A stretch of DNA of 64,000 nt from an uncultured Armatimonadia bacterium (GTDB lineage: Bacteria; Armatimonadota; Zipacnadia; UBA1398; CAZMGT01). Position numbers and translations under genes: made by a program. The notes under the pieces were generated by a model that was not told the origin of the DNA, searched no databases, and was given only the letters and a program-made list of their open reading frames with translations. Position 1 is the first letter of the stretch, and every line of letters starts with the position of its first letter. Positions 36,366 through 48,737 of the stretch are shown here, one piece after another. The stretch is taken from NCBI GenBank assembly GCA_964565895.1, contig CAZMGT010000002.1, forward strand, positions 78,510 to 142,509, read 5' to 3'.

Positions 36366-38789
36366 ATGTCCTGTCTTTTGCTCGCGCTCTCGCTGGCAAC
36401 GCTGCTGCTCGTGCACGACGCCCAAAGCGCCGAACCAACCGTTGAGCGCTGGGGCATCTTCGAGGTTGAGCTTAAGCAACAAGGCGAGTACGAAAACCCG
36501 TTTAGGCAGGTGTTCCTAAAGGGAACGTTTCGCTGCGGGGAAACGACGATCGTTTGCCACGGATTTTACGACGGAGGGAAAACGTGGAAGATCCGCGTCA
36601 TGCCCACTGTCGTTGGGCGCTGGAGTTATCGCACGGAATCAAACGACCCTGGGCTTGCCGGCAAGACGGGCGCCTTTCGCTGCGTCCCTCCCTCAAAGGG
36701 CAACCATGGGCCAATTGTCGTGCGCAACACCTATCATTTCGCCAATGCCGACGGCACACCTTATTACCCCGTGGGGACAACGCTTTACAACTGGCTTCAT
36801 CGCGAGGAGCAGTTGCAAGAACAAACACTTCAAACATTGCGCCAACACTGCTTTAACAAGGTTCGCTGCTGCGTTTTCCCCAAATGGTATACCTATAATC
36901 ATGTAGAGCCGCCACTTTATCCGTGGCCCAAAAAAGAAAACGGACAGTTCGACTACGACCGATTTAACCCGGAATACTTCAGACATATCGAACGCCGACT
37001 CAACGATCTCTTGGAGTTAGGAATCATCGCCGACCTTATCTTGTTCCACCCTTACGATAAATGGGGTCACTCAAAGATGACCCCGGAGCAGGACGATGCT
37101 TACCTAAAATATGTAATCGCGCGGTTTGCTGCTTTTCGCAATGTGTGGTGGACGCTGGCGAACGAATATGACCTGGTAAAACCGCCCAAGAATTGGGACC
37201 ACATCTTTCAGCTAATACGCGATCTCGACCCCTACGACCACCCGCGCTCTATCCACAATTGCCGTGAGTGGTACGACCACGGCAAGCCCTGGGTTACCCA
37301 CTGCAATATACAAAAGCAGGGGGGCGATGTATATCAGACGGCTGTCCAGGCACGGGAGAAGTATGGCAAGCCCGTGGTGATCGACGAGTACGGCTACGAG
37401 GGCGACGTCAAGCAGCGCTGGGGTTCGCTTTCCCCCGAGGAGGAGACGCAGCGGCACTGGGCCGCGGCGCTCGCCGGGGCTTATGCCTCGCACGGCGAGA
37501 CGTACTATAACCCCGAGGAGAAGCTATGGTGGTCCGTCGGAGGCAAGCTGATCGGAAAAAGCCCCGCGCGCATTGCCTTTCTCAAACAAACAATGGCCGC
37601 CGCGCCATACGAGGAGATGGCCCCGGACCCGCAGTTTTCCCCGGGCGATTACGCCTTGTGCAAAAAGGGCGAATATTACCTCGTCTACCTCACCAGCGAA
37701 GCCCCGCGCACCCTTTCCCTGCCCGCCGACCTGCCCTTTCGCGTGGACGCCATCGATACGTGGAACATGACGATAACCCCGCTCAACGACGTTCTCGACG
37801 GCCGGCTAACGTTCACGCCGCCGGGGCCGTATTACCTGCTGCGCATCGTGGCCTATGGCGCGGGCGAAAGGCGGCGGCCGCGCGCCGAGGGAAGCGTCGA
37901 GCCGCGCGAAGGCGTCGCTCCGCTTGCCGTGCGCTTTTCCTGCCCGGGCAACCTTCCGGTGCTCTGGGACTTCGGCGACGGCGCGCGCTCCGCCGAGCGC
38001 GTCGCCCAGCACACCTACGCAAAACCAGGGCTTTATCGGGTCTCGCTTACCGTAACCGATGACCGCGGGGAAAAGGCCACGCAGTTTTTCACCATAGCCG
38101 CCGACGTTGCGCTGGGCGAGCCGCTTGTGCGCGTGGGCGTTGCCCAGGGCGAGGCGCCGGCGGTTGCTTTTCGCGGGCCGGTGGCGCGGACAGCAGACGG
38201 CGGGCTAAACTTCGGCGCGGGCGAGCCGTGGAAATGGGTTTCCGTGGGCGAGGGGCCGCTTGCTCAGCTCGAAGGTCTGCGCTCGTTTACCATCCTCGGC
38301 TGGCTCAAGCCCGTCGCCTTGCAGACAGGCAGCGGCGGAAACCGCATTGCTTTTAACCTAAACTACAACAAATCCGGCTTCGACCTTGTCCACCTCAGCG
38401 ATGGGCGGCTGAGGCTCGCCGTAAACGAGTGGCCGGACAAAATCTCAAACGACAGCTCGCCGGGAAAGCTCAAGCGCGGACAATGGACGTTCTTCGCTGT
38501 CTCCTACGATTCGACCAAAGACAAAGACAATGTTTGTTGGTATTTTGGTGACCTTAATACTCCCGCATCGCTCGACAAAACAAATACCTATAATCGTGGG
38601 CCGACAGGTAGAAATAGCGGCCCATTAACCGTGGGAAACTACAACGAAACGATCCATCGCCACGGGCTAGACAGACAGTTTCGTGGAATAATCCATGCCC
38701 TTCACATTTTCGGGAGCAAGATTTTTCGCTCGGGTGTGCTAGACCCAAAGACAATAAGGGAGCTACAAGCAAAAACACAACCCAAGTAG
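36366..38789 (+). CDS. secreted multi-domain glycosidase-like protein: DUF5060 plus DUF4038 (GH140-like) core, a PKD domain and a C-terminal LamG/ConA-like lectin domain
   Basis: A GGGAGG RBS is present. The signal peptide is LLLALSLATLLLVHDAQSA. DUF5060- and DUF4038-like N-terminal regions (WTLANEYD) are followed by a PKD signature WDFGDG...HTYAKPGLYRVSLTVTD and a LamG-like tail. GC is mosaic (see findings). Confidence 0.5.
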   Translation: MSCLLLALSLATLLLVHDAQSAEPTVERWGIFEVELKQQGEYENPFRQVFLKGTFRCGETTIVCHGFYDGGKTWKIRVMPTVVGRWSYRTESNDPGLAGKTGAFRCVPPSKGNHGPIVVRNTYHFANADGTPYYPVGTTLYNWLHREEQLQEQTLQTLRQHCFNKVRCCVFPKWYTYNHVEPPLYPWPKKENGQFDYDRFNPEYFRHIERRLNDLLELGIIADLILFHPYDKWGHSKMTPEQDDAYLKYVIARFAAFRNVWWTLANEYDLVKPPKNWDHIFQLIRDLDPYDHPRSIHNCREWYDHGKPWVTHCNIQKQGGDVYQTAVQAREKYGKPVVIDEYGYEGDVKQRWGSLSPEEETQRHWAAALAGAYASHGETYYNPEEKLWWSVGGKLIGKSPARIAFLKQTMAAAPYEEMAPDPQFSPGDYALCKKGEYYLVYLTSEAPRTLSLPADLPFRVDAIDTWNMTITPLNDVLDGRLTFTPPGPYYLLRIVAYGAGERRRPRAEGSVEPREGVAPLAVRFSCPGNLPVLWDFGDGARSAERVAQHTYAKPGLYRVSLTVTDDRGEKATQFFTIAADVALGEPLVRVGVAQGEAPAVAFRGPVARTADGGLNFGAGEPWKWVSVGEGPLAQLEGLRSFTILGWLKPVALQTGSGGNRIAFNLNYNKSGFDLVHLSDGRLRLAVNEWPDKISNDSSPGKLKRGQWTFFAVSYDSTKDKDNVCWYFGDLNTPASLDKTNTYNRGPTGRNSGPLTVGNYNETIHRHGLDRQFRGIIHALHIFGSKIFRSGVLDPKTIRELQAKTQPK

Positions 38790-38890: not shown

Positions 38891-40114
38891 ATGAGAAAGC
38901 GCCTTGAACCCTCGGTTTTCAGGCTGCCCATTCACGACATAAGACACGGGTTTTTCTCCGCCGTTTACTTTTGGAGAACAAAACGTGTATTAGAACAGGA
39001 CAACAGACACCCCACAATTACCCACCAAATTTTCCAGAAAAAGGAGAACGTGATAATCTGCGGGACAGACGAAGCCATTGCCATATTGAAAACGGGCACC
39101 GGTTACTACAAAGATTACAGCGCAGCGGCCGAGGCATTTGAGCAGCTTGCGCAACTGCGCCAACAGGCCGACGCCGCACTGCGCGCTCGCGACTATCACG
39201 CGCACAAGAAGTTGTGCGCAAAGTGCGCCGACCTTTCGCGCAAGCTAGACGAGCTCTGGGTGGACTGCTTCGATCGCATCCAAGTGTGGTCGCTTTACGA
39301 TGGCGATCGCCTTTCTGCGTGGGAGACGGCGATGCTCATCGAGGGCGACTATTCGCTCTTCGCCCATCTAGAGTCGCTCTATCTCGGGGTGCTCGCCCGG
39401 CGCACGAAGATCGCCACAAACACACGGGCCCTGGCCGAGGCCGCGCGGGGGAAGCCCGTTTTATACTTCGCGGACCGCTTCGACTACTTCCTCGCCCAGC
39501 CGGGCGACGGCCACGCCGCACAAGTCGGTGGCGCGGCCGGGGTGTGCACGGACGCCATGGCCGCGCTGTGGCAGGGCCGCGGGCTGGGGACCATTCCCCA
39601 CGCGATGATCGTCGCCTACGGCGGAGACACGGCGCTTGCCGCGGAGAAGTTTAACGCGTTCTTGCCCACGGTGAACACGATCAGCCTGGTGGACTTCGAC
39701 AACGACTGCGTAAACACGGCGCTCGCCGTCGCCCGGCGCCTCGGCGAGCGCCTGTGGGGCGTGCGCATTGACACGGCGGAAAACCTCGTCGACCGCTCGC
39801 TGCAAAACCTTGCCCACCTGCCCGACGAGGAAAAATATGGCCCCGTGCCGCTGCTTGCGGAGAAGGTCCGCCAAGCGCTGGACCGCGAGGGGTTTGGGCA
39901 CGTTAAAATCGTCGTCTCCGGCGGGCTAAACCCGGAGAAAATCGCGCGGTTTGAGGAGCGTGGGGCCCCAGTCGACGCCTATGGCGTGGGAAGCTGGATT
40001 CTCTCCGGGCGGTTTGACTTTACCGCCGACGCTGTGCGCTTGGAAGGGAAAAATCTGGCCAAGGTGGGCCGCGAGTATAAGCCCAACGATCGCCTCGAGC
40101 TCGTGCGCGGCTAG
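38891..40114 (+). CDS. pncB: nicotinate phosphoribosyltransferase (class II, about 400 aa)
   Basis: This is NAPRTase family by length and layout. It lies directly upstream of a nicotinamidase gene, giving an NAD salvage pair. Confidence 0.55.
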   Translation: MRKRLEPSVFRLPIHDIRHGFFSAVYFWRTKRVLEQDNRHPTITHQIFQKKENVIICGTDEAIAILKTGTGYYKDYSAAAEAFEQLAQLRQQADAALRARDYHAHKKLCAKCADLSRKLDELWVDCFDRIQVWSLYDGDRLSAWETAMLIEGDYSLFAHLESLYLGVLARRTKIATNTRALAEAARGKPVLYFADRFDYFLAQPGDGHAAQVGGAAGVCTDAMAALWQGRGLGTIPHAMIVAYGGDTALAAEKFNAFLPTVNTISLVDFDNDCVNTALAVARRLGERLWGVRIDTAENLVDRSLQNLAHLPDEEKYGPVPLLAEKVRQALDREGFGHVKIVVSGGLNPEKIARFEERGAPVDAYGVGSWILSGRFDFTADAVRLEGKNLAKVGREYKPNDRLELVRG

Positions 40115-40137
40115 CTTGCTGGCCTAAGGCGAGGAGG

Positions 40138-40710
40138 ATGACCGCGGTGACCATCGACCGCGCCCGCGATGCGCTGATTATCGTGGACTTGCAAAATGAC
40201 TTCTGCCCCGGCGGGGCCCTTCCCGTCCCTCGGGGCGACGAGATCGTCCCCATCATTAACGCGCTTGTGGAGAAGTTCGACCACGTCTTTGCCACGCAGG
40301 ACTGGCACCCGGAAAACCACGTTTCATTTAAAACACAAGGCGGGCCCTGGCCCCCGCACTGCGTCCAGGGATCGCCCGGGGCGGAGCTGCACCCCAACCT
40401 GCGCGCGGAGAACGCCGTGCGCGTGCGCAAGGGGACCAACCCCCAGCGCGAGGCCTACTCCGGCTTTGAGGGGACCGACCTTGCGGACAAGCTGCGCGCT
40501 GCCGGCGTGCGCCGCGTGTTCGTGTGCGGCCTGGCCACGGACTACTGCGTTAAGGCCACAGTGCTCGACGCTCTGCGCGAGGGGTTTGACGTGGTTGTCG
40601 TCTCCGACGCCGTGCGCGGGGTTGACGTAAAGCCCGGAGACTCCCAAGCGGCGCTTGAGGAAATGAAGGCCGCCGGGGCGGCGGTAGTCGCTTCGAGCGA
40701 GATTTGCTAG
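40138..40710 (+). CDS. pncA: nicotinamidase / pyrazinamidase (isochorismatase family)
   Basis: IVDLQNDFCPGGAL is the PncA N-terminal motif. The catalytic Cys lies in VFVCGLATDYCV. A GAGGAGG RBS is present. Confidence 0.7.
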   Translation: MTAVTIDRARDALIIVDLQNDFCPGGALPVPRGDEIVPIINALVEKFDHVFATQDWHPENHVSFKTQGGPWPPHCVQGSPGAELHPNLRAENAVRVRKGTNPQREAYSGFEGTDLADKLRAAGVRRVFVCGLATDYCVKATVLDALREGFDVVVVSDAVRGVDVKPGDSQAALEEMKAAGAAVVASSEIC

Positions 40711-40849
40711 CGCGCCGGCCGCTGAGCGCCGGACGCGGTTTGCCAGCGGCCGCGCGATCCGCCTTGGCCAAGAGCTTGCGCCGAAGCGCGGCGTGGGGCG
40801 GCAGCCGTGGCGGAGGAGGAGGGCAAGCGCTAGCGAACGGGCGTTTGTA

Positions 40850-40878
40850 TTGACAAATTGAAACGGCCGTTCTATAAA
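40850..40878 (+). promoter_or_regulatory. consensus sigma-70-type promoter (TTGACA-17-TATAAA) with a perfect 10-bp palindrome AACGGCCGTT in the spacer, a candidate TetR operator
   Basis: TTGACA is at 40850-40855, the 17-nt spacer is aattgaaacggccgttc, and TATAAA is at 40873-40878. The palindrome is at 40862-40871. This is an AT-rich patch in an otherwise GC-rich genome, about 70 nt upstream of the tetR ATG. Confidence 0.5.
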
Positions 40879-40944
40879 TGAAACCGCTCTTCTAATTCGG
40901 GCCCGCAGAAACGACTCGCTTTGTACACAAGGCAGGAGCTAGCC

Positions 40945-41586
40945 ATGGCTGCGGAGAAGCTTTCGCGGCGGGAGCGAGAGCGCGAGAGGCACCGCGAGCT
41001 AATCTTGCACGCCGCGGAGAGGCTTTTTGCGGAAAAGGGTTTTTATCGGACGACGATGCAGGAGATTGCACAGCGGGCGGAGTTTGCGCTAGGGACGGTA
41101 TACCGCTTTTTCCGGGGGAAGCAGGAGCTTTATGAGCAGCTTTTGGAGCGCAAGCTGCAGGAGCTTGTAGCGACGGTTTGCGACCAGATGGCGCAGGAAC
41201 AGTCGCCGTTGGGGCGGGTGCGCAAGTTTATCGAGGCCAAGCTTACGTTCCTCGCCGGAAACGCCCACTTCGCCCGCCTGTTCTTTGCCGAAGCCCATGC
41301 CTGGCGCTCCTCCGTGAGCCAGCGCTTGGAGCGCAAGCTGCGCGACAAATATAACGACCTCCTCGACAAGCTCAGCGGAACGTTCGAGGAAGGCATGGGC
41401 CAGGGCATCTTTGCTCAAACCGACCCGCGCTTGCTTGCCCTAGCCCTCGATGGGCTAACCAGCGCGCTTGCCCTGCGCTGGGCGGAATGGCGCGAGCAAA
41501 GCAGCGATGTTTCGCCAGCGTCGGAAATCGAAGCCGCCAAGCGGCTTTTCCTGCAGGGCGTGCTTGCCCGACCGCAGACAATGTAG
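40945..41586 (+). CDS. TetR/AcrR-family transcriptional regulator
   Basis: The HTH is FAEKGFYRTTMQEIAQRAEFALGTVYRFF. An AGGCAGGAG RBS precedes the ATG at 40945. Confidence 0.7.
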   Translation: MAAEKLSRRERERERHRELILHAAERLFAEKGFYRTTMQEIAQRAEFALGTVYRFFRGKQELYEQLLERKLQELVATVCDQMAQEQSPLGRVRKFIEAKLTFLAGNAHFARLFFAEAHAWRSSVSQRLERKLRDKYNDLLDKLSGTFEEGMGQGIFAQTDPRLLALALDGLTSALALRWAEWREQSSDVSPASEIEAAKRLFLQGVLARPQTM

Positions 41587-41631
41587 TCCTAGCGCTCGAC
41601 TCATCCTGGGCCACGGGGAGATGGGTGAGCT

Positions 41632-43095
41632 ATGGACTGGCAAACGGTGTTCCGCAACGATTCCTTGCGCGCCGTGCTGCGCACGTTGATTTCCTATGGC
41701 TTGTTCCGGCAGGGCACGATCCGGTTCATCGAGCGCAAGGCGCAGGAGGCGTTGCTCTACGAGGACGCCTATGGCCGGCCGCTGCAGGTGCAGGAGGACA
41801 AAAAGGCCCTCCTTTCCGCTGTGTTGCACAGCATCGATCGCGGCATTGAGCGCGGGCTGATATCCAAGCGCGTGCTCGACCGTGCCCTGCGCATCTTCCT
41901 CCTCGATGTCCTGTGCAGCCGCGACATCCGCCTTCGCGCGCAGGAGCGCTTGGGGTTTATGCCCCCCCTGTTTGTGACCATTAGCCCGACGATGAAGTGC
42001 AACCTGCGCTGCCCCGGGTGCTACGCGACAAGCGCCCCGCACTGCGAGGCCAAGCTCGACTGGGATACGTTCGACCGTATTCTTACCGAGATGAAGGAGC
42101 TCTGGGGCTCGTGCTTTGCGGTAATCTCCGGCGGCGAGCCGTTTTTGTGGAACGACAACGGCCGCACGTTCCTGGACATGGCCGAAAAGCACGACTATCG
42201 CTTTTTCCTCGTCTACACCAACGGCACGCTCATCGATGACAAGCTCGCCCGGCGCCTGGCCGAGCTGGGCAACATTACCCCGGCCATTTCCGTGGAGGGC
42301 TATGAGGCGGAGACCGACGCCATTCGCGGCAAGGGCGTCTACAAGCGCATTCTCCGTGCGTTTGACGCCCTGCGCGAAGCGGGCGTGATGTTTGGCATCT
42401 CGATTACCGCGACGAGGCGCAACTGGGACTTAGTGACCCGTGAGGAGCTGTTTGACTTCTACTTCGAGGAGCAGGGCGCGCTTTACGCGTGGATCTTCCA
42501 ATACATGCCCATTGGGCGCAAGCACGCGTTCGACCTAATGGTCACCCCGCAGCAGCGGCTAGAGATGCTCCGCCGCGTTTGGCGCCTTGTGCGCGAGCGC
42601 AAAATGTTCATCGCCGACTTCTGGAACAGCGGAACGGCGAGCGACGGGTGCATCGCCGCGGGCCGCGCCGGCGGATACTTCTACATCAACTGGAACGGCG
42701 ACGTTACCCCGTGCGTGTTCATCCCCTATGCCGCGGCGAACATCTACGACATCTACCGTAGCGGGGGGACGCTGAACGACGTTCTGCAGACGCCGCTGTT
42801 TAAGCGCATTCGCGACTGGCAGCACGAATATGGCTATCAGCAGCCTGCGGAGAAGACGCGCAACTGGCTTTGCCCCTGCGCCATTCGCGACCATTTCGAC
42901 AACTTCCTTAAAGCGGCGCAGGAGTGCCCCGTGACACCGATTGACCCCGACGCCGAGCAGGCCCTCGGCGACCCGGAGTATCACCGCGCGATGATCCAAT
43001 ACGGCAAGGAGTTCGACCGCATTAGCAGCGAGATCTGGGAGCGCGAGTACATCGCCCCGCACAAGGGCGGCGATCAGCAGCGCGTCGCCGTATAG
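41632..43095 (+). CDS. radical SAM enzyme with a partial SPASM/Twitch-like C-terminal Cys cluster and an unusual N-terminal extension of about 125 aa
   Basis: CNLRCPGCY (CxxxCxxC) sits at about residue 130, after ISPTMK. GGEPFLW is the glycine-rich SAM motif. Later, DGCIAAGRAGGYFYINWNGDVTPC (a SPASM-like C...G.V.PC) and NWLCPC are present. It starts 45 nt after tetR. Confidence 0.55.
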   Translation: MDWQTVFRNDSLRAVLRTLISYGLFRQGTIRFIERKAQEALLYEDAYGRPLQVQEDKKALLSAVLHSIDRGIERGLISKRVLDRALRIFLLDVLCSRDIRLRAQERLGFMPPLFVTISPTMKCNLRCPGCYATSAPHCEAKLDWDTFDRILTEMKELWGSCFAVISGGEPFLWNDNGRTFLDMAEKHDYRFFLVYTNGTLIDDKLARRLAELGNITPAISVEGYEAETDAIRGKGVYKRILRAFDALREAGVMFGISITATRRNWDLVTREELFDFYFEEQGALYAWIFQYMPIGRKHAFDLMVTPQQRLEMLRRVWRLVRERKMFIADFWNSGTASDGCIAAGRAGGYFYINWNGDVTPCVFIPYAAANIYDIYRSGGTLNDVLQTPLFKRIRDWQHEYGYQQPAEKTRNWLCPCAIRDHFDNFLKAAQECPVTPIDPDAEQALGDPEYHRAMIQYGKEFDRISSEIWEREYIAPHKGGDQQRVAV

Positions 43096-43121
43096 CGCGC
43101 AAAAGCAAGGCAAAAGTCGCT

Positions 43122-43152
43122 CGCGGGCGGCCCTGCCCGCGGGCGTTTTTTT
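43122..43152 (+). terminator. rho-independent terminator after the radical SAM gene (possibly bidirectional with convergent fpg)
   Basis: Stem cgcgggc / gcccgcg with loop ggccct, then ggcg and TTTTTTT at 43146-43152. Confidence 0.6.
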
Positions 43153-43157
43153 GTGGC

Positions 43158-43970
43158 TTACCTTTGGCAGCGCGGGCAGAAGTAGGTGCTTCGGTTCTGC
43201 TGACCGATCCTCTTAATCTTCGCCCCACAGCGCAGGCAAGGCTCGCCCTCGCGCCCGTAGACCTTAAGAAAGTTTTGAAACGAGCCCTCATCGCCCTGCG
43301 CATCGCGATACTCGCTAACGGTCGTTCCGCAGAACGCTATTGCGCGGCGGAGAACGCCACGTATCGCGCGGTGTAGCCGGCGCACTTCGTCTGGGCAAAG
43401 CGAGCCCGCCGGCCGCTCGGGGTGTAGGCCCGCCGCGAACAATATCTCCGCGGCGTAAATGTTGCCGATCCCCGCAACTTTGTCCTGGCGCATGAGCCAC
43501 AGCTTAAGCCCCTGCTTGCTTTGGCCAAGAAGCTCCGCTAGGCGTCGCGCCGTCAGCTCACGGCTGAGGGGCTCCACCCCTTGCGGGGCGACCTCCTCCA
43601 CCTTGCGGCACAGGTGCATCGTCCCCAGCCGGCGCAAGTCGCAAAACCACAGGCTCCCTTTGCTTAAGCGCACGCGAGCGCGCAGCCTGCGCCGGTCCTC
43701 GGGGCCGATGCGCGGGGCGTAAAACAGCCTGCCCGTCATGCGCAGGTGAAAGCACAGCCACAGGCCCTCGCCGTCGCGCGGGGCGGGCCCGAGCTCGATC
43801 GCCACAACCTTTCCCCGGCGCGTTACCCCGCGCACCTTGCGCCCTCGCGCGCGCTCGGGCTGAGGCACGCCAAGCCGCGCGTCGAGCACTTGCACCTCGC
43901 GCACAACCAACCCCGGCAACACGGGCGCGAGCTGGCGGACGATCGTCTCTACCTCGGGCAGCTCGGGCAT
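43158..43970 (-). CDS. mutM: formamidopyrimidine-DNA glycosylase
   Basis: The N-terminus is MPELPEVETI. A C-terminal zinc finger CPRCQR is present. Confidence 0.75.
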   Translation of the reverse strand: MPELPEVETIVRQLAPVLPGLVVREVQVLDARLGVPQPERARGRKVRGVTRRGKVVAIELGPAPRDGEGLWLCFHLRMTGRLFYAPRIGPEDRRRLRARVRLSKGSLWFCDLRRLGTMHLCRKVEEVAPQGVEPLSRELTARRLAELLGQSKQGLKLWLMRQDKVAGIGNIYAAEILFAAGLHPERPAGSLCPDEVRRLHRAIRGVLRRAIAFCGTTVSEYRDAQGDEGSFQNFLKVYGREGEPCLRCGAKIKRIGQQNRSTYFCPRCQR

Positions 43971-43976
43971 CGCTGG

Positions 43977-44138
43977 CTAGTCGGTGGGGTCGAAAAACTC
44001 CTTGCCCAGCCCACACACGGGGCACACCCAGTCCTCGGGCAGGTCCTCGAACAACGTCCCCGGGGCAACGCCGTTTTCCGGGTCGCCCTTCTCGGGGTCG
44101 TAGATATAGCCGCACGCCGTGCACTTGTATTTTTGCAT
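43977..44138 (-). CDS. rubredoxin
   Basis: [15 protein letters not shown]...WVCPVCG carries the two CxxCG knuckles. A GGAGGAAGG RBS is present. The longer ORF in the track is rejected. Confidence 0.7.
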
Positions 44139-44163
44139 GGGCTTCAACCCCTTCCTCCGCGCC

Positions 44164-45363
44164 CTACTGCGCCGGGGCCAGACCCCTGTGCCGCTCGGCA
44201 ATGGCCTCGGCCAAGCGCTCGATCGCCTGCTCGTCCTCGGGCCGGGGCAAGCCCCTGACAAGCACGGGCTCGAGCAGCTCCAGGCGCAGGCCGCCAAGCA
44301 GCTCCGCCAACTGCTCCACCGTGTGCCCGCCCCATCCATACGACCCGATCACTGCCGCAAAGCGCGCCTTTGGGCGCAGGGCATTCGCCAAATATGCCGC
44401 ATAGACAGCGCTCGGGTGCGCCCCGCCGAGCACCGTGGGCGCCCCTAAGACGATCGTCGCCGCGTCAACCAGCGTCATGGCCAACTTGCCCAGGTCCGTG
44501 ACCTGAAGGTCGAACACCTCGCAGGGCACGCCGCGCGCGGCCAACGCCTCGACGAGCCGCGCGACCAGCGCCCGCGTGCTCCCGTGCATCGAGACATAGC
44601 ACACAGCGGCAAGGTTCTTGGGCTCGCCGCTTACCCATTCGCGATAGGCGTCGAGGATAAACCGCGGCTCGCTATGCAGCGGGCCGTGGCTGGGCGCGAT
44701 AAGCAAAGGGTCAAGCTCCTCGACCTTCGCCAGGTGTTTTTCGATCGTCCGGGCGAAGGGCATCATGATTTCCGCATAGTAGCGCTTTGCCGCGAGGTAT
44801 AGCGCGCGCCGGTCGGGGGCGAACAGCTCGCTCGTGGCCAGGTGCGAGCCAAACAGGTCGCAGGGAAACAGCGTCCGCTCCTGTTCGAGATAGGTAAGCA
44901 TCGTCTCCGGCCAGTGCACCCAGGGGGCGTGAATAAAGCGCAGGGTCCGGTCGCCAAGCGGGAGCCGCTCCCCGTCGCCCACGGTGAGGAACCTCTCCTC
45001 GGGCAGGTGCAGGAGGTTAACGAGCAGCCCCTTTGCTTTTTCGGTACAAACAACTTTTGCGCTGGCAAACCGCGCGAGAACTTGGGGCAGAGCGCCGGAG
45101 TGGTCTTGCTCTGCGTGGTTGGCGATAACGTAGTGTAGCTCGCTTATCCCCAAGCTCTCCAGCCGGGCAAGCAGCACGTCGGCCTTGGGCGGGTCAACGG
45201 TGTCCACAAGCGCCGTGGCTTCGCTTCCGCGGACGAGGTAGGCGTTGTAGCTCGTCCCGTCGGGCAGGGGGATGAGGGCGTCGAACATGCGGCGCTCCCA
45301 GTCCACCGCGCCCACCCAAAACACGCGCTCGGAAACCGCCTTTGGCGTAAACCGCACAGTCAC
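44164..45363 (-). CDS. flavodiiron protein (FprA/ROO-type: metallo-beta-lactamase-like diiron domain plus a flavodoxin domain)
   Basis: The diiron signature HAEQDH (HxExDH) is present. A C-terminal flavodoxin-like domain follows. It is translationally coupled (4-nt overlap) to the upstream rubrerythrin-like gene. Confidence 0.7.
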
Positions 45364-45872
45364 TCTCCCGCTCCCTTCCCCCGGGCCTCGGCCAGGCGTT
45401 TGTTTAGCTGGGCAATGTGCCCCAGCTCCTCCTTAATTATCGCCTCAATGCGCTCCCGTCCGAGCCTCTGGGGAACGAGCTCGCGCATTTGCACATAGAA
45501 CACGATGGAGTCTTTTTCCAGCTCGATCGCCGTGGCCAGGATCTCCTCCAGAGGCTCGCCACCACGGAGAAGCTCCGCGGGGTCCTTGCGAATGTCGAAG
45601 ACATAGCCGTCGGCCATTGCGTGCAGGTAAAGCCCGGCTTCGCCCGTGGGGTCGAACACTGTGGCCCGGCGCTCGGCGGGGGAGAGCTCGCTGCGCATTT
45701 GGGCAAACGTGCGCTCGTGGTCCTCCTCCATTTTCGCCAGGTCAAGCAGGGCCTGGCGCGCTGGTCCCGAGGCGTTCTCCGCGGCCAGGTGGTAAAACCG
45801 CGCTCCATTGCGCTCGATGCGCTCGGCCATTTGCAAAATCTCGTCCGCGTTAAACGTAATGCTCATGCTCAT
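45360..45872 (-). CDS. ferritin-like diiron protein, rubrerythrin family (no rubredoxin domain)
   Basis: Two ExxH motifs (MEEDHERTF, EELGHIAQL) sit in a helical ferritin-like fold. A GGAGGAGG RBS is present. Confidence 0.55.
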   Translation of the reverse strand: MSMSITFNADEILQMAERIERNGARFYHLAAENASGPARQALLDLAKMEEDHERTFAQMRSELSPAERRATVFDPTGEAGLYLHAMADGYVFDIRKDPAELLRGGEPLEEILATAIELEKDSIVFYVQMRELVPQRLGRERIEAIIKEELGHIAQLNKRLAEARGKGAGE

Positions 45873-47435: not shown

Positions 47436-48737
47436 CTAGCCCAGCTCCATCGCCGGCTCGCGCGGCGAAATTCCGTCCGGGTCGTTGGCCCGCGCGCCCT
47501 TTGGCGCGGGAACGGGGCCGGCGAGCAGCGGGTCGTCCGTCTCGTTCATCCACCGCTCAAGCCGCGCGCGCATTTCCTCGAGCACCTGCTTGTGCGCGGG
47601 GTCGGCGGCGAGGTTGTTCGTCTCCACGGGGTCGAAGATAAGGTCGTATAGCTGCTCCTCGGCGACGGGCCGCTCGCGCCAGCCGTGGGCCAGCCACAAG
47701 TCCTTGCTCGGGCTGTCGTCGCAGTTGGGAAGCACCGGCCGCGTCCGCCCGTCGAACCGCCGAATGTACTTCCACCGCCTCGTGCGCACGGCGCGCATCG
47801 GCTCATACGCTGCGTGATAGGTTACCTCGGCGAAAATCTCCTCGCGAATCTCCTCCGCCTCCCCGCGAATGAGGGGCATGAGCGACTTCCCCTGCAGCCA
47901 GGGCGGGGGATCGACCTCCAACAGCTCGCAAATCGTCGGATACAGATCGATTTGCGAGACGAGGGCGTCGCACACCCGGCCCCCCTCAAACCCTCCCGGC
48001 CCGCGCATAATGAGCATGACCCCGATCCCGTGGTCCGTCAGGTTGCACTTCATCCAGGGGAAGGCAATGCCGTGGTCTGTGGTGCAGATAACGAGGGTGT
48101 TTTCGGCAAGCCCCGCTTCCTCGAGCGCTTCAAGCACGATGCCAAACCCCTCGTCGAGCACCCGCGCGCTCGCCTTATAGCAGGCCATGTCGTAGCGCGT
48201 CTCCGGGGCGTCGGGAATGGGCAGCGGCGGCTGGCAATAGCGCGGGTCCTCCGCGGGCCCCGGCTCCTCGTAAACGCGGTGCGTGTCGTTAAACCCTGCG
48301 GAGAGGAAAAACGGCTGCTCCGGCTTTCCCCGCAGCCACTGCGCGACCACTTGCGCGCGCTCCGGCGCCCGCGGGGGAACGTCGGTAATCGTCTCGTCGT
48401 AGCCGATTACCGAGGGGTCGCGCGCGATGTGCTGGGTGCCGATGAGCGTCGAGCGATAGCCTGCGCGGCGCAGGGTGTGCACGATGTGCTTGCCGTAGTC
48501 GTTTAGCGAAAATCCGCGGTGCGCCAGGCCAATCATCCCGCAGCAGTGCGGATATTGGCCGGTAAGCAACGCGGCGCGGCTGGGAGAGCACGTCGGCCCC
48601 CCGCAAAACGCCTGGCGAAAGAGCACCCCTTGCTCCGCCAGCCGCTGAATGTTCGGCGTGGCGATGGCAAAGCCATAGGGTTGCACATAGCGCCCGCTGT
48701 CGTGCGAGTGGAGGTAGAGAATGTTCGGTCGTTCCAT
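47436..48737 (-). CDS. formylglycine-dependent sulfatase (arylsulfatase family) with no signal peptide
   Basis: CSPSRAALLTG carries the CxPxR sulfatase signature. The N-terminus MERPNILYLHSHD has no hydrophobic leader. A GAGGTG SD is present. Confidence 0.7.
   Translation of the reverse strand: MERPNILYLHSHDSGRYVQPYGFAIATPNIQRLAEQGVLFRQAFCGGPTCSPSRAALLTGQYPHCCGMIGLAHRGFSLNDYGKHIVHTLRRAGYRSTLIGTQHIARDPSVIGYDETITDVPPRAPERAQVVAQWLRGKPEQPFFLSAGFNDTHRVYEEPGPAEDPRYCQPPLPIPDAPETRYDMACYKASARVLDEGFGIVLEALEEAGLAENTLVICTTDHGIAFPWMKCNLTDHGIGVMLIMRGPGGFEGGRVCDALVSQIDLYPTICELLEVDPPPWLQGKSLMPLIRGEAEEIREEIFAEVTYHAAYEPMRAVRTRRWKYIRRFDGRTRPVLPNCDDSPSKDLWLAHGWRERPVAEEQLYDLIFDPVETNNLAADPAHKQVLEEMRARLERWMNETDDPLLAGPVPAPKGARANDPDGISPREPAMELG

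Follow-up and report, generated by a model that had tools for sequence, protein, structure and literature searches.

A tetR-radical SAM gene pair with a conserved promoter-operator and a probable role in membrane-spanning lipid synthesis

The tetR locus and its promoter-operator

The window, by which we mean the whole 64-kb stretch of DNA analyzed, carries a tetR gene followed by a gene for a radical SAM enzyme (Table 1). The initial annotation had described a TetR gene and a SPASM/Twitch-like radical SAM gene as a unit whose strong promoter holds an operator in its spacer and which ends in a terminator. This description was found to hold, and the reported 45-nt gap and 487-aa enzyme were both confirmed. 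No strong terminator was found in the tetR-radical SAM spacer and the two genes are therefore likely to be co-transcribed; in relatives the gap varies from -4 nt (overlapping genes, locus L001) to 209 nt. The strong hairpin with seven dT residues begins slightly upstream of position 43122, where it had been placed. Ten of its 12 stem pairs are G-C, the folding energy is -33.5 kcal/mol, and it starts 22 nt past the stop codon of the radical SAM gene. Since an A-rich tract flanks the upstream side of the stem, the terminator may also serve the convergent fpg gene. The upstream leader of about 60 nt, the gap between the genes and the closeness of the terminator leave no room for a precursor-peptide gene, in agreement with the absence noted earlier for this locus. 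A search of Rfam over positions 39500-44500 returned no riboswitch and no other family. In the window the operon is preceded by NAD salvage genes and followed by fpg. The window also encodes rubredoxin, flavodiiron-like and rubrerythrin-like proteins, from which the host was judged to be an anaerobe.

Table 1. Features of the tetR-radical SAM locus, with positions in the window.
Feature	Position	Strand	Basis or remark
-35 hexamer TTGACA	40850-40855	+	Motif match; kept in orthologous loci
Operator site 1, 16-mer TGAAACGGCCGTTCTA	40859-40874	+	Predicted; includes palindrome 40862-40871
-10 hexamer TATAAA	40873-40878	+	5/6 match to TATAAT, final T missing
Operator site 2 TGAAACCGCTCTTCTA	40879-40894	+	Predicted; 13/16 matches to site 1
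tetR, TetR-family repressor, 213 aa from ATG	40945-41586	+	TetR_N 60.5 bits
tetR-radical SAM spacer, 45 nt, GGGGAGA ribosome-binding site	41587-41631	+	
Radical SAM enzyme, 487 aa, Mss-like family (clade A)	41632-43095	+	Radical_SAM 75.6 bits
N-terminal six-helix domain, residues 1-107	41632-41952	+	AlphaFold2 model; family-conserved
CxxxCxxC cluster C123/C127/C130	41998-42021	+	Invariant in 53 family members
Twitch-like auxiliary-cluster region, C340/hairpin/C361/C414-x-C416	42649-42879	+	Conserved Cys, model
Intrinsic terminator, 12-bp stem then TTTTTTT	43118-43152	+	Hairpin; stem 43118-43145
fpg, convergent	43158-43970	-	Identified by Pfam/NCBIfam-type profile match

The -35 and -10 hexamers are separated by 17 nt. 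They had been called perfect, and TTGACA-17-TATAAA is indeed present, but the -10 hexamer falls short of perfection by its final dT. The combination is found at one place in the 64 kb and was absent from all 100 shuffles. A sigma-70 promoter scan, which demands a dT at position 6 of the -10 hexamer, called no promoter. Despite this the promoter was kept because of comparative evidence: TTGACA is invariant 5' of the orthologous tetR genes in loci L085, L086, L087, and L001 and is found in most of the remaining tetR-radical SAM loci, and L085 and L087 have TATAAT at the position aligned with TATAAA of the window.

The perfect 10-bp palindrome reported in the spacer, AACGGCCGTT, is present and unique in the window. 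Alone it is weakly significant, as 14 of 100 shuffles contain a copy. By sequence comparison, the predicted operator is conserved in its outer half-sites, and the central GGCC, to which the palindrome owes its perfection, is not among the conserved parts. Predicted site 1 occupies the -35/-10 spacer and overlaps the first two -10 bases, while site 2, the sole other match to the 16-mer in the window, begins 20 bp after site 1 and lies across the expected transcription start. The 16-mer frame of site 1 was found at an equal distance from TTGACA in L085 (TGAAACGGCTGTTCTA) and L087 (TGAAACCGGGGTTCTA), and in weaker versions in L086 and L001. L086 also carries a perfect palindrome, TAGAATAGTCATTCTA, immediately 3' of its -10 hexamer. 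In L025 the operator is flipped (TAGAACGGTGGTTTCA, 14/16), with a score unmatched by any shuffle of the region, and two sites are likewise spaced by 20 bp. The layout shared by orthologous tetR-radical SAM pairs, TTGACA-N3-TGAAAC-N4-GTTCTA-TAAT, appears to be new to the literature, and its recurrence 5' of these pairs strengthens the operator position that had been proposed for the window.

The tetR product has the N-terminal helix-turn-helix (HTH) and the all-helical ligand domain, about 200 aa in all, of the TetR family, with Pfam matches to TetR_N (PF00440, 60.5 bits against a cut-off of 24) and TetR_C_24 (PF17932, 28.9 against 26.4). There are 97 TetR relatives in the PDB, among them FadR of B. 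subtilis (3whb). Its top NCBIfam matches are the acyl-CoA-sensing FadR (NF053878, 64.4 bits), which is the best, and FasR (57 bits). Both lie far below their equivalog cut-offs of 200 and 330, and identity as a FadR equivalog was rejected. The likeness to FadR (Bacillus YsiA) and FasR consists of the TetR_N HTH, a TetR_C_24-type ligand domain and operator sites overlapping the promoter, to which the window TetR is presumed to bind. The operator TGAAAC-N4-GTTCTA itself is specific to the orthologue group of the window TetR, unlike those of FadR and FasR. TetR orthologues encoded 5' of orthologous radical SAM genes are 42-55% identical, with a near-invariant HTH (AEFALGTVYRFF) and a conserved recognition helix. 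A tetR gene lies directly 5' of the radical SAM gene in all three of the closest relatives examined and in 13 of 68 informative loci.

The position of the operator and its conservation across loci suggest that TetR represses its own operon. A strong sigma-70-type promoter would drive tetR and the radical SAM gene together. A TetR dimer would occupy the predicted 16-bp site (TGAAAC-N4-GTTCTA) between the -35 and -10 hexamers, filling the spacer, and would also bind the second site, which starts 20 bp further on and covers the expected transcription start. With both sites bound, RNA polymerase would be blocked and both genes repressed.

Architecture and identity of the radical SAM enzyme

The enzyme has the CxxxCxxC motif and the core fold of the radical SAM superfamily. 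The motif had been placed from about residue 130; it is present, but its cysteines are C123, C127, and C130. The C...G.V.PC element and the CPC reported for the C-terminal part were recovered as C340...G...PC361 and C414-P-C416. C340, C361, and C416 are invariant among the family and C414 is found in most members. In the AlphaFold2 model (mean pLDDT 90.6) a beta-hairpin of residues 349-359 lies between C340 and C361, and the C-terminal Cys region aligns with the Twitch region of SkfB. Judged by sequence and model, the arrangement fits the Twitch pattern of a Cys, a beta-hairpin, a second Cys and one or two further Cys. The seven-Cys SPASM motif (CX9-15GX4C...CX2CX5CX3C...C) was not found in the enzyme, which lacks the CX2CX5CX3C block, and the Pfam SPASM match is marginal (24.0 bits against a cut-off of 21.5). 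The three to four conserved C-terminal cysteines thus point to one Twitch-like cluster and not to a full SPASM domain.

The N-terminal domain is modeled as six helices (residues 3-8, 10-21, 23-43, 51-73, 79-95, and 97-107) with no strands. Its conserved residues include R26, P50, V53, D56, A63, and S78, and Pfam gave nothing better than E = 0.12 for it. The all-helical prediction is consistent with the earlier statement that the extension is no RiPP-recognition fold. The domain is a conserved feature of the family, whose members are conserved along their full length.

Profile classification, proposed earlier as a check, identified a radical SAM enzyme with a marginal SPASM match, and no NCBIfam model reached its cut-off. 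A fold search of the PDB listed SuiB, SkfB, and anSME first and GDGT-MAS tenth, a model-based ranking that does not separate lipid from peptide enzymes. SkfB, SuiB, anSME, and other peptide maturases are the best sequence and fold matches, and maturases of mycofactocin, sactipeptides and ranthipeptides are among the top NCBIfam matches, as would be expected of a SPASM/Twitch RiPP-type peptide or protein maturase with its precursor encoded elsewhere. Such an enzyme was the implicit model of the initial annotation. However, these NCBIfam matches are far below their cut-offs (MftC, 81.5 against 265 bits), as are those of all family models. A RiPP maturase with an RRE combines three helices and a three-stranded sheet with an adjacent precursor, whereas the N-terminal domain modeled here differs from that of SkfB, SuiB, and anSME and lacks the RRE strands. 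In more than 80 related loci no precursor-peptide-like small ORF is conserved beside the gene, the short neighbors being phasin-like proteins of 100-110 aa, and the genes that do recur there belong to lipid metabolism (see below). Identities of 45-63% across phyla are also unusually high for such enzymes, and we regard a RiPP-type maturase as improbable.

The window contains a Cys-type sulfatase gene with a CSPSR motif 4.3 kb downstream (47436-48737), and in an anaerobic host, as judged by gene content, the enzyme might be the anSME that matures it. This is very doubtful: the enzyme reaches 43.7 bits with the anSME model (TIGR03942), whose cut-off is 349, anSME has two auxiliary clusters and no N-terminal helical domain whereas one set of three to four Cys is found here, the sulfatase gene is on the opposite strand past four unrelated genes, and sulfatases are not recurrent neighbors in 80 loci. 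The TetR-radical SAM pair also resembles mftR-mftC, and the enzyme was compared with maturases of cofactors and heme such as AhbD, NirJ, MftC, and PqqE. Mycofactocin was rejected on scores and context. Scores against this group of models are 60-82 bits with cut-offs of 265-650 (73.2 for AhbD and 74.7 for NirJ, each against 500), TetR scores 33.8 bits against 224.9 for MftR, and no ahb, nir, mft, or pqq genes were found in the window or in related loci. A maturase of this kind is hardly credible here.

More than 4000 clusters at 90% identity match the enzyme at E < 1e-3, and the top 120 matches share 52-63% identity with 95-100% of the length aligned. A relative is encoded by at least 564 species-level genomes from Planctomycetota, Verrucomicrobiota, WOR-3, Aminicenantes, Armatimonadota, Omnitrophota, Latescibacterota, KSB1, Chloroflexota, Desulfobacterota, Spirochaetota, and Patescibacteria. 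The family covers almost all anaerobic phyla and is almost wholly bacterial, with one archaeal locus (Altiarchaeota) and no Thermotoga or Thermoanaerobacter among the best 80 of the 564 genome matches. A homologue search with a member from a Bacillota MAG returned only the same candidate-phyla clade. Membership of so large and conserved a family speaks against the earlier view of a self-contained novelty of unknown chemistry.

Lipid genes beside relatives and the relation to Mss

A comparison of neighborhoods, also asked for earlier, weighs against that view as well. In the 80+ related loci the recurrent neighbors are ABC1/UbiB (14 loci), patatin (14), UppS (10), phasin-like (8), and DegV (6) genes, and MMPL/RND, FabH-like, and B12-radical SAM genes also recur beside family members. 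Two HGD-D genes and one BcrAD_BadFG gene come after the Halothermothrix homologue; together they supply the domains that make up the PlsA/Ger ether-lipid enzymes. The genomic context of the family is lipid metabolism. The association with membrane-lipid genes that would be expected of an Mss is seen in relatives and is absent from this window: no lipid genes adjoin the operon, and no homologues of UbiB, patatin, phasin, UppS, DegV, MMPL, FabH, or PlsA/Ger were found in the 64 kb.

Mss, the bacterial membrane-spanning lipid synthase, couples fatty acyl chains tail to tail through a C-C bond, which yields diabolic or iso-diabolic acids, and is represented by Tmari_0825 of Thermotoga maritima and WP_129545148.1 of Thermoanaerobacter ethanolicus (Sahonero-Canavesi et al. 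2022, PMC13159169). Both Mss and the window enzyme are radical SAM enzymes about 460-490 aa long that occur in anaerobes. Its homologues are broadly distributed among phyla in anaerobes (PMC13159169; PMC11868695), and the literature already counts them in Planctomycetota and many candidate phyla. The same restriction to anaerobes and breadth of phyla were found here, the range in common comprising PVC, FCB, candidate phyla, Spirochaetes, Chloroflexi, Patescibacteria, and some DPANN-type archaea.

The window enzyme belongs to clade A of the family. Clade B includes proteins from Moorella, Thermanaeromonas (including sp. C210), Koleobacter, Thermosediminibacterales, Desulforudis, Ammonifex, Halothermothrix, Atribacteria, and Synergistales; homologue accessions recovered include WP_173297768 and WP_206708432. 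These taxa figure among the published carriers of Mss, with species of Moorella, Thermanaeromonas (sp. C210), Koleobacter, Desulforudis, and Thermosediminibacterales given as Mss-positive (PMC13159169; Table S2 of PMC13274423). The published criterion for Mss is E <= 1e-50, at least 30% identity to Mss of T. ethanolicus or T. maritima, and a length of at least 400 aa. Against P0283, a clade B protein that serves as a proxy and is not a characterized Mss, the window enzyme is 35% identical over 474 aa (E = 1e-84). Clades A and B grade into one another at identities of 30-50%. Some neighbors are also common to both: ABC1/UbiB adjoins the Moorella gene (clade B), and a wHTH regulator of about 230 aa adjoins the clade B gene in three of four genomes inspected and lies near the radical SAM gene in eight Chloroflexi loci of clade A. 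Taxon overlap, the proxy clade and the shared neighbors place the window enzyme most plausibly within the published Mss homologue group. Assignment to a characterized family with a conserved N-terminal domain had been named in advance as evidence against the initial annotation. The present assignment comes close to this, if by an indirect route, and the family does not count among the classical housekeeping families.

Proposed reaction and its control

We consider it probable that the locus is a tetR-radical SAM operon, autorepressed by TetR, that encodes an Mss-like enzyme coupling lipid tails. The analyses establish the family of the enzyme, the lipid genes around its relatives and its domain architecture, which combines a six-helix cap, a radical SAM core with C123/C127/C130, and a Twitch-like domain with C340/C361/C414/C416 for a predicted single cluster. 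The exact reaction is modeled on the characterized Mss of T. maritima and T. ethanolicus and on the archaeal enzymes Tes and Gms: the enzyme would split SAM reductively, take a hydrogen from the end of an acyl or alkyl tail of a membrane lipid, and join this tail to a second one by a C-C bond, giving membrane-spanning lipids of the diabolic-acid type. The relation to Tes/GDGT-MAS (PDB 7TOL/7TOM) is remote; neither homology beyond the radical SAM core nor three [4Fe-4S] clusters were found, and this identity was rejected.

Clade A might instead be an Mss paralogue, also under TetR control, that carries out a different reaction on a lipid or another hydrophobic molecule, such as Gms-like mid-chain cross-linking, a cyclisation or some other change to the tail. 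The window enzyme shares only 35% identity with the clade in which the characterized enzymes presumably fall, and clade A has an extra conserved stretch relative to Mss, its first 75 or so residues, which is unmatched by most clade B representatives. B12-radical SAM genes, possibly for Gmm-like methylases, lie beside some members. The six-helix N-terminal domain is a feature described for Gms, the archaeal GMGT synthase and lipid cross-linker, where it faces the lipid pocket (PMC11186832). Gms and the window enzyme are both of the SPASM/Twitch class with SuiB as best structural template (PMC11186832; PMC11214058), and the Gms architecture of six-helix N-terminus, radical SAM core and beta-hairpin is matched by the model of the window enzyme. 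Against a different reaction stand the continuity of clades A and B, their shared specific neighbors and the practice of published screens, which class everything under E = 1e-50 as Mss. Gms, moreover, has two auxiliary [4Fe-4S] clusters with four Cys each and about 83% of its homologues are archaeal, whereas the window family conserves three to four Cys for one putative cluster and has the single archaeal locus mentioned above; identity as Gms was rejected. We therefore hold a paralogue of different reaction to be unlikely, although clearly less so than a peptide maturase.

For an Mss-like enzyme, the weak FadR/FasR-like similarity of TetR and the lipid context of the enzyme suggest that TetR would be released by a ligand, most plausibly a fatty acyl-CoA or some other lipid; given the FadR score of 64 bits against 200, the identity of the ligand is a guess. 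Expression of mss reportedly varies with growth phase, as would suit control by a dedicated regulator or repressor, and in the mss literature accessible to us no regulator or operator is described.

Palaeoclimate studies make wide use of branched tetraether and diabolic-acid lipids as proxies, yet it is still a matter of debate which bacteria produce them and how their synthesis is controlled. The locus and its relatives offer a concrete regulatory unit, with a TetR protein and a predicted 16-bp operator conserved within a near-consensus promoter, the wHTH regulator taking the position of tetR in other lineages. Should TetR prove to respond to a lipid or acyl-CoA, this ligand would reveal the signal that switches on membrane-spanning lipid synthesis, and such a signal would bear directly on the environmental response of the lipid proxies. 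More speculatively, and with rather low confidence, clade A may differ in function from Mss and be a distinct radical enzyme of lipid tails with a single auxiliary cluster and a six-helix cap, made only once a lipid-sensing TetR has left its operator. In that case it would form a class of bacterial membrane lipids yet to be assigned, for example some of the orphan tetraethers, branched or overly branched, found in anoxic waters and sediments. For annotation, thousands of entries named 'radical SAM protein' or 'PqqE/MftC-like' would shift towards a lipid role. Clade A dominates uncultured anaerobic phyla.

Promoter, putative operator and terminator of the tetR-radical SAM unit

Judged from sequence comparison, the locus belongs, under predicted TetR repression, to the family of lipid radical SAM (rSAM) enzymes that resemble Mss, the bacterial membrane-spanning lipid synthase. 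The initial annotation described a tetR gene and a 487-aa rSAM protein 45 nt apart, with a CxxxCxxC motif and C-terminal cysteine elements, behind a perfect -35/-10 promoter carrying a palindrome in its spacer. These features were all found, except that the -10 hexamer lacks the conserved final T and the promoter is not perfect in this respect; a sigma-70 scan returned no promoter for the same reason. The arrangement TTGACA-17 nt-TATAAA was found a single time in the window, and none of 100 shuffles contained it. The palindrome was also unique in the window, and is by itself weakly unexpected (a copy in 14 of 100 shuffles). It forms the core of candidate operator site 1, and site 2 covers the expected transcription start.

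Positions of features in the window and, for the winged-helix (wHTH) protein, in related loci
Feature	Position	Strand	Details
Secreted 807-aa protein	36366-38789	+	DUF5060, apiosidase-like catalytic domain, DUF5605, PKD, LamG
Nicotinate phosphoribosyltransferase	38891-40114	+	NAD salvage
Nicotinamidase/pyrazinamidase	40138-40710	+	NAD salvage
-35	40850-40855	+	TTGACA; 17-nt spacer before -10
Site 1	40859-40874	+	16-mer TGAAACGGCCGTTCTA; contains the palindrome
Palindrome	40862-40871	+	AACGGCCGTT
-10	40873-40878	+	TATAAA
Site 2	40879-40894	+	second 16-mer copy; 13/16 matches; 20 bp 3' of site 1
tetR	40945-41586	+	213 aa; clear TetR_N domain
rSAM gene	41632-43095	+	487 aa; 45-nt gap after tetR
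Terminator	43118-43152	+	hairpin and seven T; 12-bp stem, 10 G-C pairs, -33.5 kcal/mol
fpg	43158-43970		convergent
Rubredoxin	43977-44339 (ORF)	-	domain in last 50 or so residues; true start probably later
Flavodiiron-like ODP/metallo-beta-lactamase protein	44164-45363	-
Rubrerythrin-like protein	45360-45872	-
Cys-type sulfatase	47436-48737	-	CSPSR motif at residue 50
wHTH protein, Firmicutes	L083 7435-8130; L088 5164-5856; L089 5284-5985

The strong hairpin with its T7 run does close the unit, as described. However, within 43096-43160 it is flanked 5' by an A-rich tract, and the stop codon of the convergent fpg is 12 nt away; it is therefore probably a bidirectional terminator common to tetR-rSAM and fpg, and not the operon's own.

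Among 68 informative loci of relatives, tetR was found directly upstream of the rSAM gene on the same strand in 13 and no more than three genes away in 18, and the loci with a nearby tetR cover at least six phyla. It was upstream in all three closest relatives inspected, and in locus L001 a 4-nt overlap between them indicates an operon. The promoter layout recurred in orthologous tetR-rSAM pairs when the window (TTGACAaatTGAAACGGCCGTTCTATAAA) was aligned with loci L085 (TTGACAaggTGAAACGGCTGTTCTATAAT) and L087 (TTGACAataTGAAACCGGGGTTCTATAAT), and in weaker forms in L086 and L001. A perfect palindrome, TAGAATAGTCATTCTA, lies 3' of the -10 in L086. In L025 the asymmetric site of the aligned pairs stands in flipped orientation, TAGAACGGTGGTTTCA, just 3' of the -10, with a second site 20 bp further. 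The central GGCC, to which the window owes its 'perfect' palindrome, was not kept in relatives. From the aligned promoters, the conserved element of the putative operator is thus not the centre but a pair of 6-bp half-sites with four variable bases between them.

Across six TetR orthologues identity was 42-55% and the recognition region, AEFALGTVYRFF, varied hardly at all, which fits an operator common to the orthologues. The straightforward reading of the putative sites is that TetR would cover the spacer together with the -10 and the start site, repressing by occlusion. The best family matches of TetR were the acyl-CoA sensors FadR and FasR, both far below their cut-offs, and B. subtilis FadR was among its PDB relatives. 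Expression of mss is reported to be growth-phase-dependent; the published accounts of it, as far as surveyed, describe no regulator, and a conserved TetR operator appears not to have been described so far.

A winged-helix protein of about 230 aa is conserved beside the Mss-like gene in Firmicutes and in Chloroflexi of clade A, the family group holding the window rSAM (L027, L047, L048, L052, L059, L067, L073, and L074). The protein had no precomputed Pfam matches in the Firmicutes loci, and a Chloroflexi representative gave weak DtxR/TrmB/IclR HTH matches only. In loci lacking TetR it seems to serve as the dedicated regulator instead, and likewise appears undescribed. The putative TetR operator and this regulator of other lineages are readily testable parts.

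The radical SAM enzyme and its family

The cysteines of the rSAM are arranged as C123-x3-C127-x2-C130, followed by C340...PC361 and C414-P-C416. In an alignment of 53 sequences C123, C127, C130, C340, C361, and C416 were invariant, and C414 was present in most members. This pattern differs from the seven-Cys SPASM motif and is read as one rSAM cluster with a single Twitch-like auxiliary site. No NCBIfam model came near its cut-off, the best match being the mycofactocin maturase (81.5 bits against a cut-off of 265). Heme, cofactor and mycofactocin maturases were excluded by score and by the lack of pathway genes.

The AlphaFold2 model was confident (mean pLDDT 90.6). It shows six helices over residues 3-107, then the RS barrel and, with C340 and C361 on either side, a beta-hairpin (349-359); the C-terminal part is again helical. 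A Pfam search matched no family in the N-terminal and C-terminal parts. According to the model, the N-terminal domain is all-helical and so no RiPP recognition element (RRE), in agreement with the initial annotation, and the predicted fold puts the rSAM in the SPASM/Twitch class while leaving its substrate undecided.

A search of 5.8 billion proteins gave more than 4000 clusters related to the rSAM. The best 120 aligned over practically the whole length at 52-63% identity, the N-terminal part included, and to describe that part as an 'unexplained extension' is wrong. In a scan of one genome per species, at least 564 species carried a relative; almost all of them are uncultured anaerobes, of Planctomycetota, Verrucomicrobiota, WOR-3, Aminicenantes, Armatimonadota, Omnitrophota, Latescibacterota, KSB1, Chloroflexota, Desulfobacterota, Nitrospirota, Spirochaetota, Bacteroidota, and Bacillota. 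The best 80 of these included one archaeon (Altiarchaeota), and a second search added Patescibacteria. By sequence similarity the rSAM is not an orphan but a member of a large conserved family. With this distribution and the lipid-gene context of relatives, the earlier label of unknown chemistry no longer applies.

Gene neighbourhoods and probable relation to Mss

The neighbourhood comparison proposed initially was made by calling ORFs in 80 related loci (best 80 of at least 564) and clustering their products. Membrane-lipid genes recurred. Neighbours of the rSAM were TetR (17 of 80 loci), an ABC1/UbiB atypical kinase (14), a patatin-like phospholipase (14), undecaprenyl-diphosphate synthase UppS (10), a phasin-like protein of about 105 aa (8), the wHTH protein, here about 235 aa (8), a DegV fatty-acid-binding protein (6) and a B12-binding rSAM (5). 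MMPL/RND exporters, accompanied by LolA-like partners, recurred too, as did FabH-like genes. Labelled by precomputed Pfam, the neighbourhoods of the closest relatives read tetR-rSAM-phasin-ABC1/UbiB-RND (protein P0002, 63% identical), B12-rSAM-tetR-rSAM-phasin (P0012), and tetR-rSAM alone, like the window (P0005). None of the recurrent lipid genes was present in the 64-kb window, where the operon is placed between an NAD-salvage pair and fpg.

As the initial annotation had it for the window, no precursor-peptide ORF emerged: no Cys/Gly-rich small ORF was conserved near the rSAM across the related loci. By gene content, the relatives' neighbourhood is one of membrane lipids and not of peptide maturation. 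That the rSAM is a RiPP or protein maturase is thus disfavoured by the lipid gene context of relatives, the lack of an RRE and of a precursor peptide, and an unusually high family conservation.

A module of a 100-110-aa phasin-like protein, ABC1/UbiB kinase, patatin-like phospholipase and MMPL/RND exporter recurs 3' of the Mss-like gene (L085 6002-9793, L087 6533-6868, L009, L013, L027, L052, L073, and others), which suggests that the enzyme is coupled to a system that handles or exports lipids. A B12-binding rSAM adjoins the Mss-like gene in L087 (2477-3955, with DUF4070), L028, L037, L045, L050, and L051, and could by analogy with archaeal Gmm be a lipid methylase.

[quoted passage not shown] Mss homologues (E <= 1e-50) were reported from Firmicutes, Thermotogae, Synergistetes, Spirochaetes, Armatimonadetes, Chloroflexi, Nitrospirae, and Atribacterota, and also from FCB, PVC, candidate phyla and some archaea, with a closely related group in candidate phyla, FCB, Spirochaetes, Chloroflexi, and deltaproteobacteria (PMC13159169). 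A Black Sea study found them in Planctomycetota, Omnitrophota, Armatimonadota, Latescibacterota, Patescibacteria, and Spirochaetota. This published phylum distribution is the same as that of the window rSAM family.

The bridge to Mss was sought indirectly, through a proxy clade. When 1.84 billion representatives were searched exhaustively with a profile, 788 proteins were obtained at E < 1e-30, which form a continuum of 30-50% identity. The sister group clade B, represented by P0283, was 35% identical to the window rSAM (E = 1e-84, 474 aa). Its members include proteins of Moorella, Thermanaeromonas (including sp. C210), Koleobacter, Thermosediminibacterales, Desulforudis, Ammonifex, Halothermothrix, Atribacteria, and Synergistales; its genera and species are named in the literature as Mss carriers or iso-diabolic-acid producers. 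Clades A and B also have neighbours in common: ABC1/UbiB adjoins the Moorella clade B gene, and in three of the four genomes inspected the clade B gene has as its neighbour a wHTH protein homologous to the one that eight Chloroflexi loci hold near their clade A genes. In Halothermothrix orenii (CP001098.1; L081 7664-10866) two HGD-D genes and a BcrAD_BadFG activase gene come after the clade B homologue; together they carry the domain set of the PlsA/Ger ether-lipid enzymes, there split into separate genes.

By published operational criteria the window rSAM would almost certainly count as an Mss homologue, and from these comparisons it likely belongs to Mss. Gms, the archaeal GMGT synthase, is a less likely home, since about 83% of its homologues come from archaea and it carries two full auxiliary clusters (PMC11186832), compared to the single predicted Twitch-like site here. 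A serious rival is that clade A carries out a lipid-tail reaction different from that of the characterised Mss enzymes; the present evidence does not separate this from the Mss reaction.

Other genes in the window

The NAD-salvage pair (38891-40710, +) lies directly upstream of the tetR promoter, with no evident functional link to the operon. The minus-strand genes at 43977-45872 make up a set for oxygen/ROS detoxification, as is typical of an anaerobe. The Cys-type sulfatase of the window requires a formylglycine-generating maturase. As anSME for this sulfatase the rSAM was excluded by score (43.7 bits against a cut-off of 349), cysteine pattern and context, and this maturase must therefore be encoded elsewhere. 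The secreted 807-aa protein is a large enzyme of polysaccharide degradation, as typically found in PVC-type heterotrophs.
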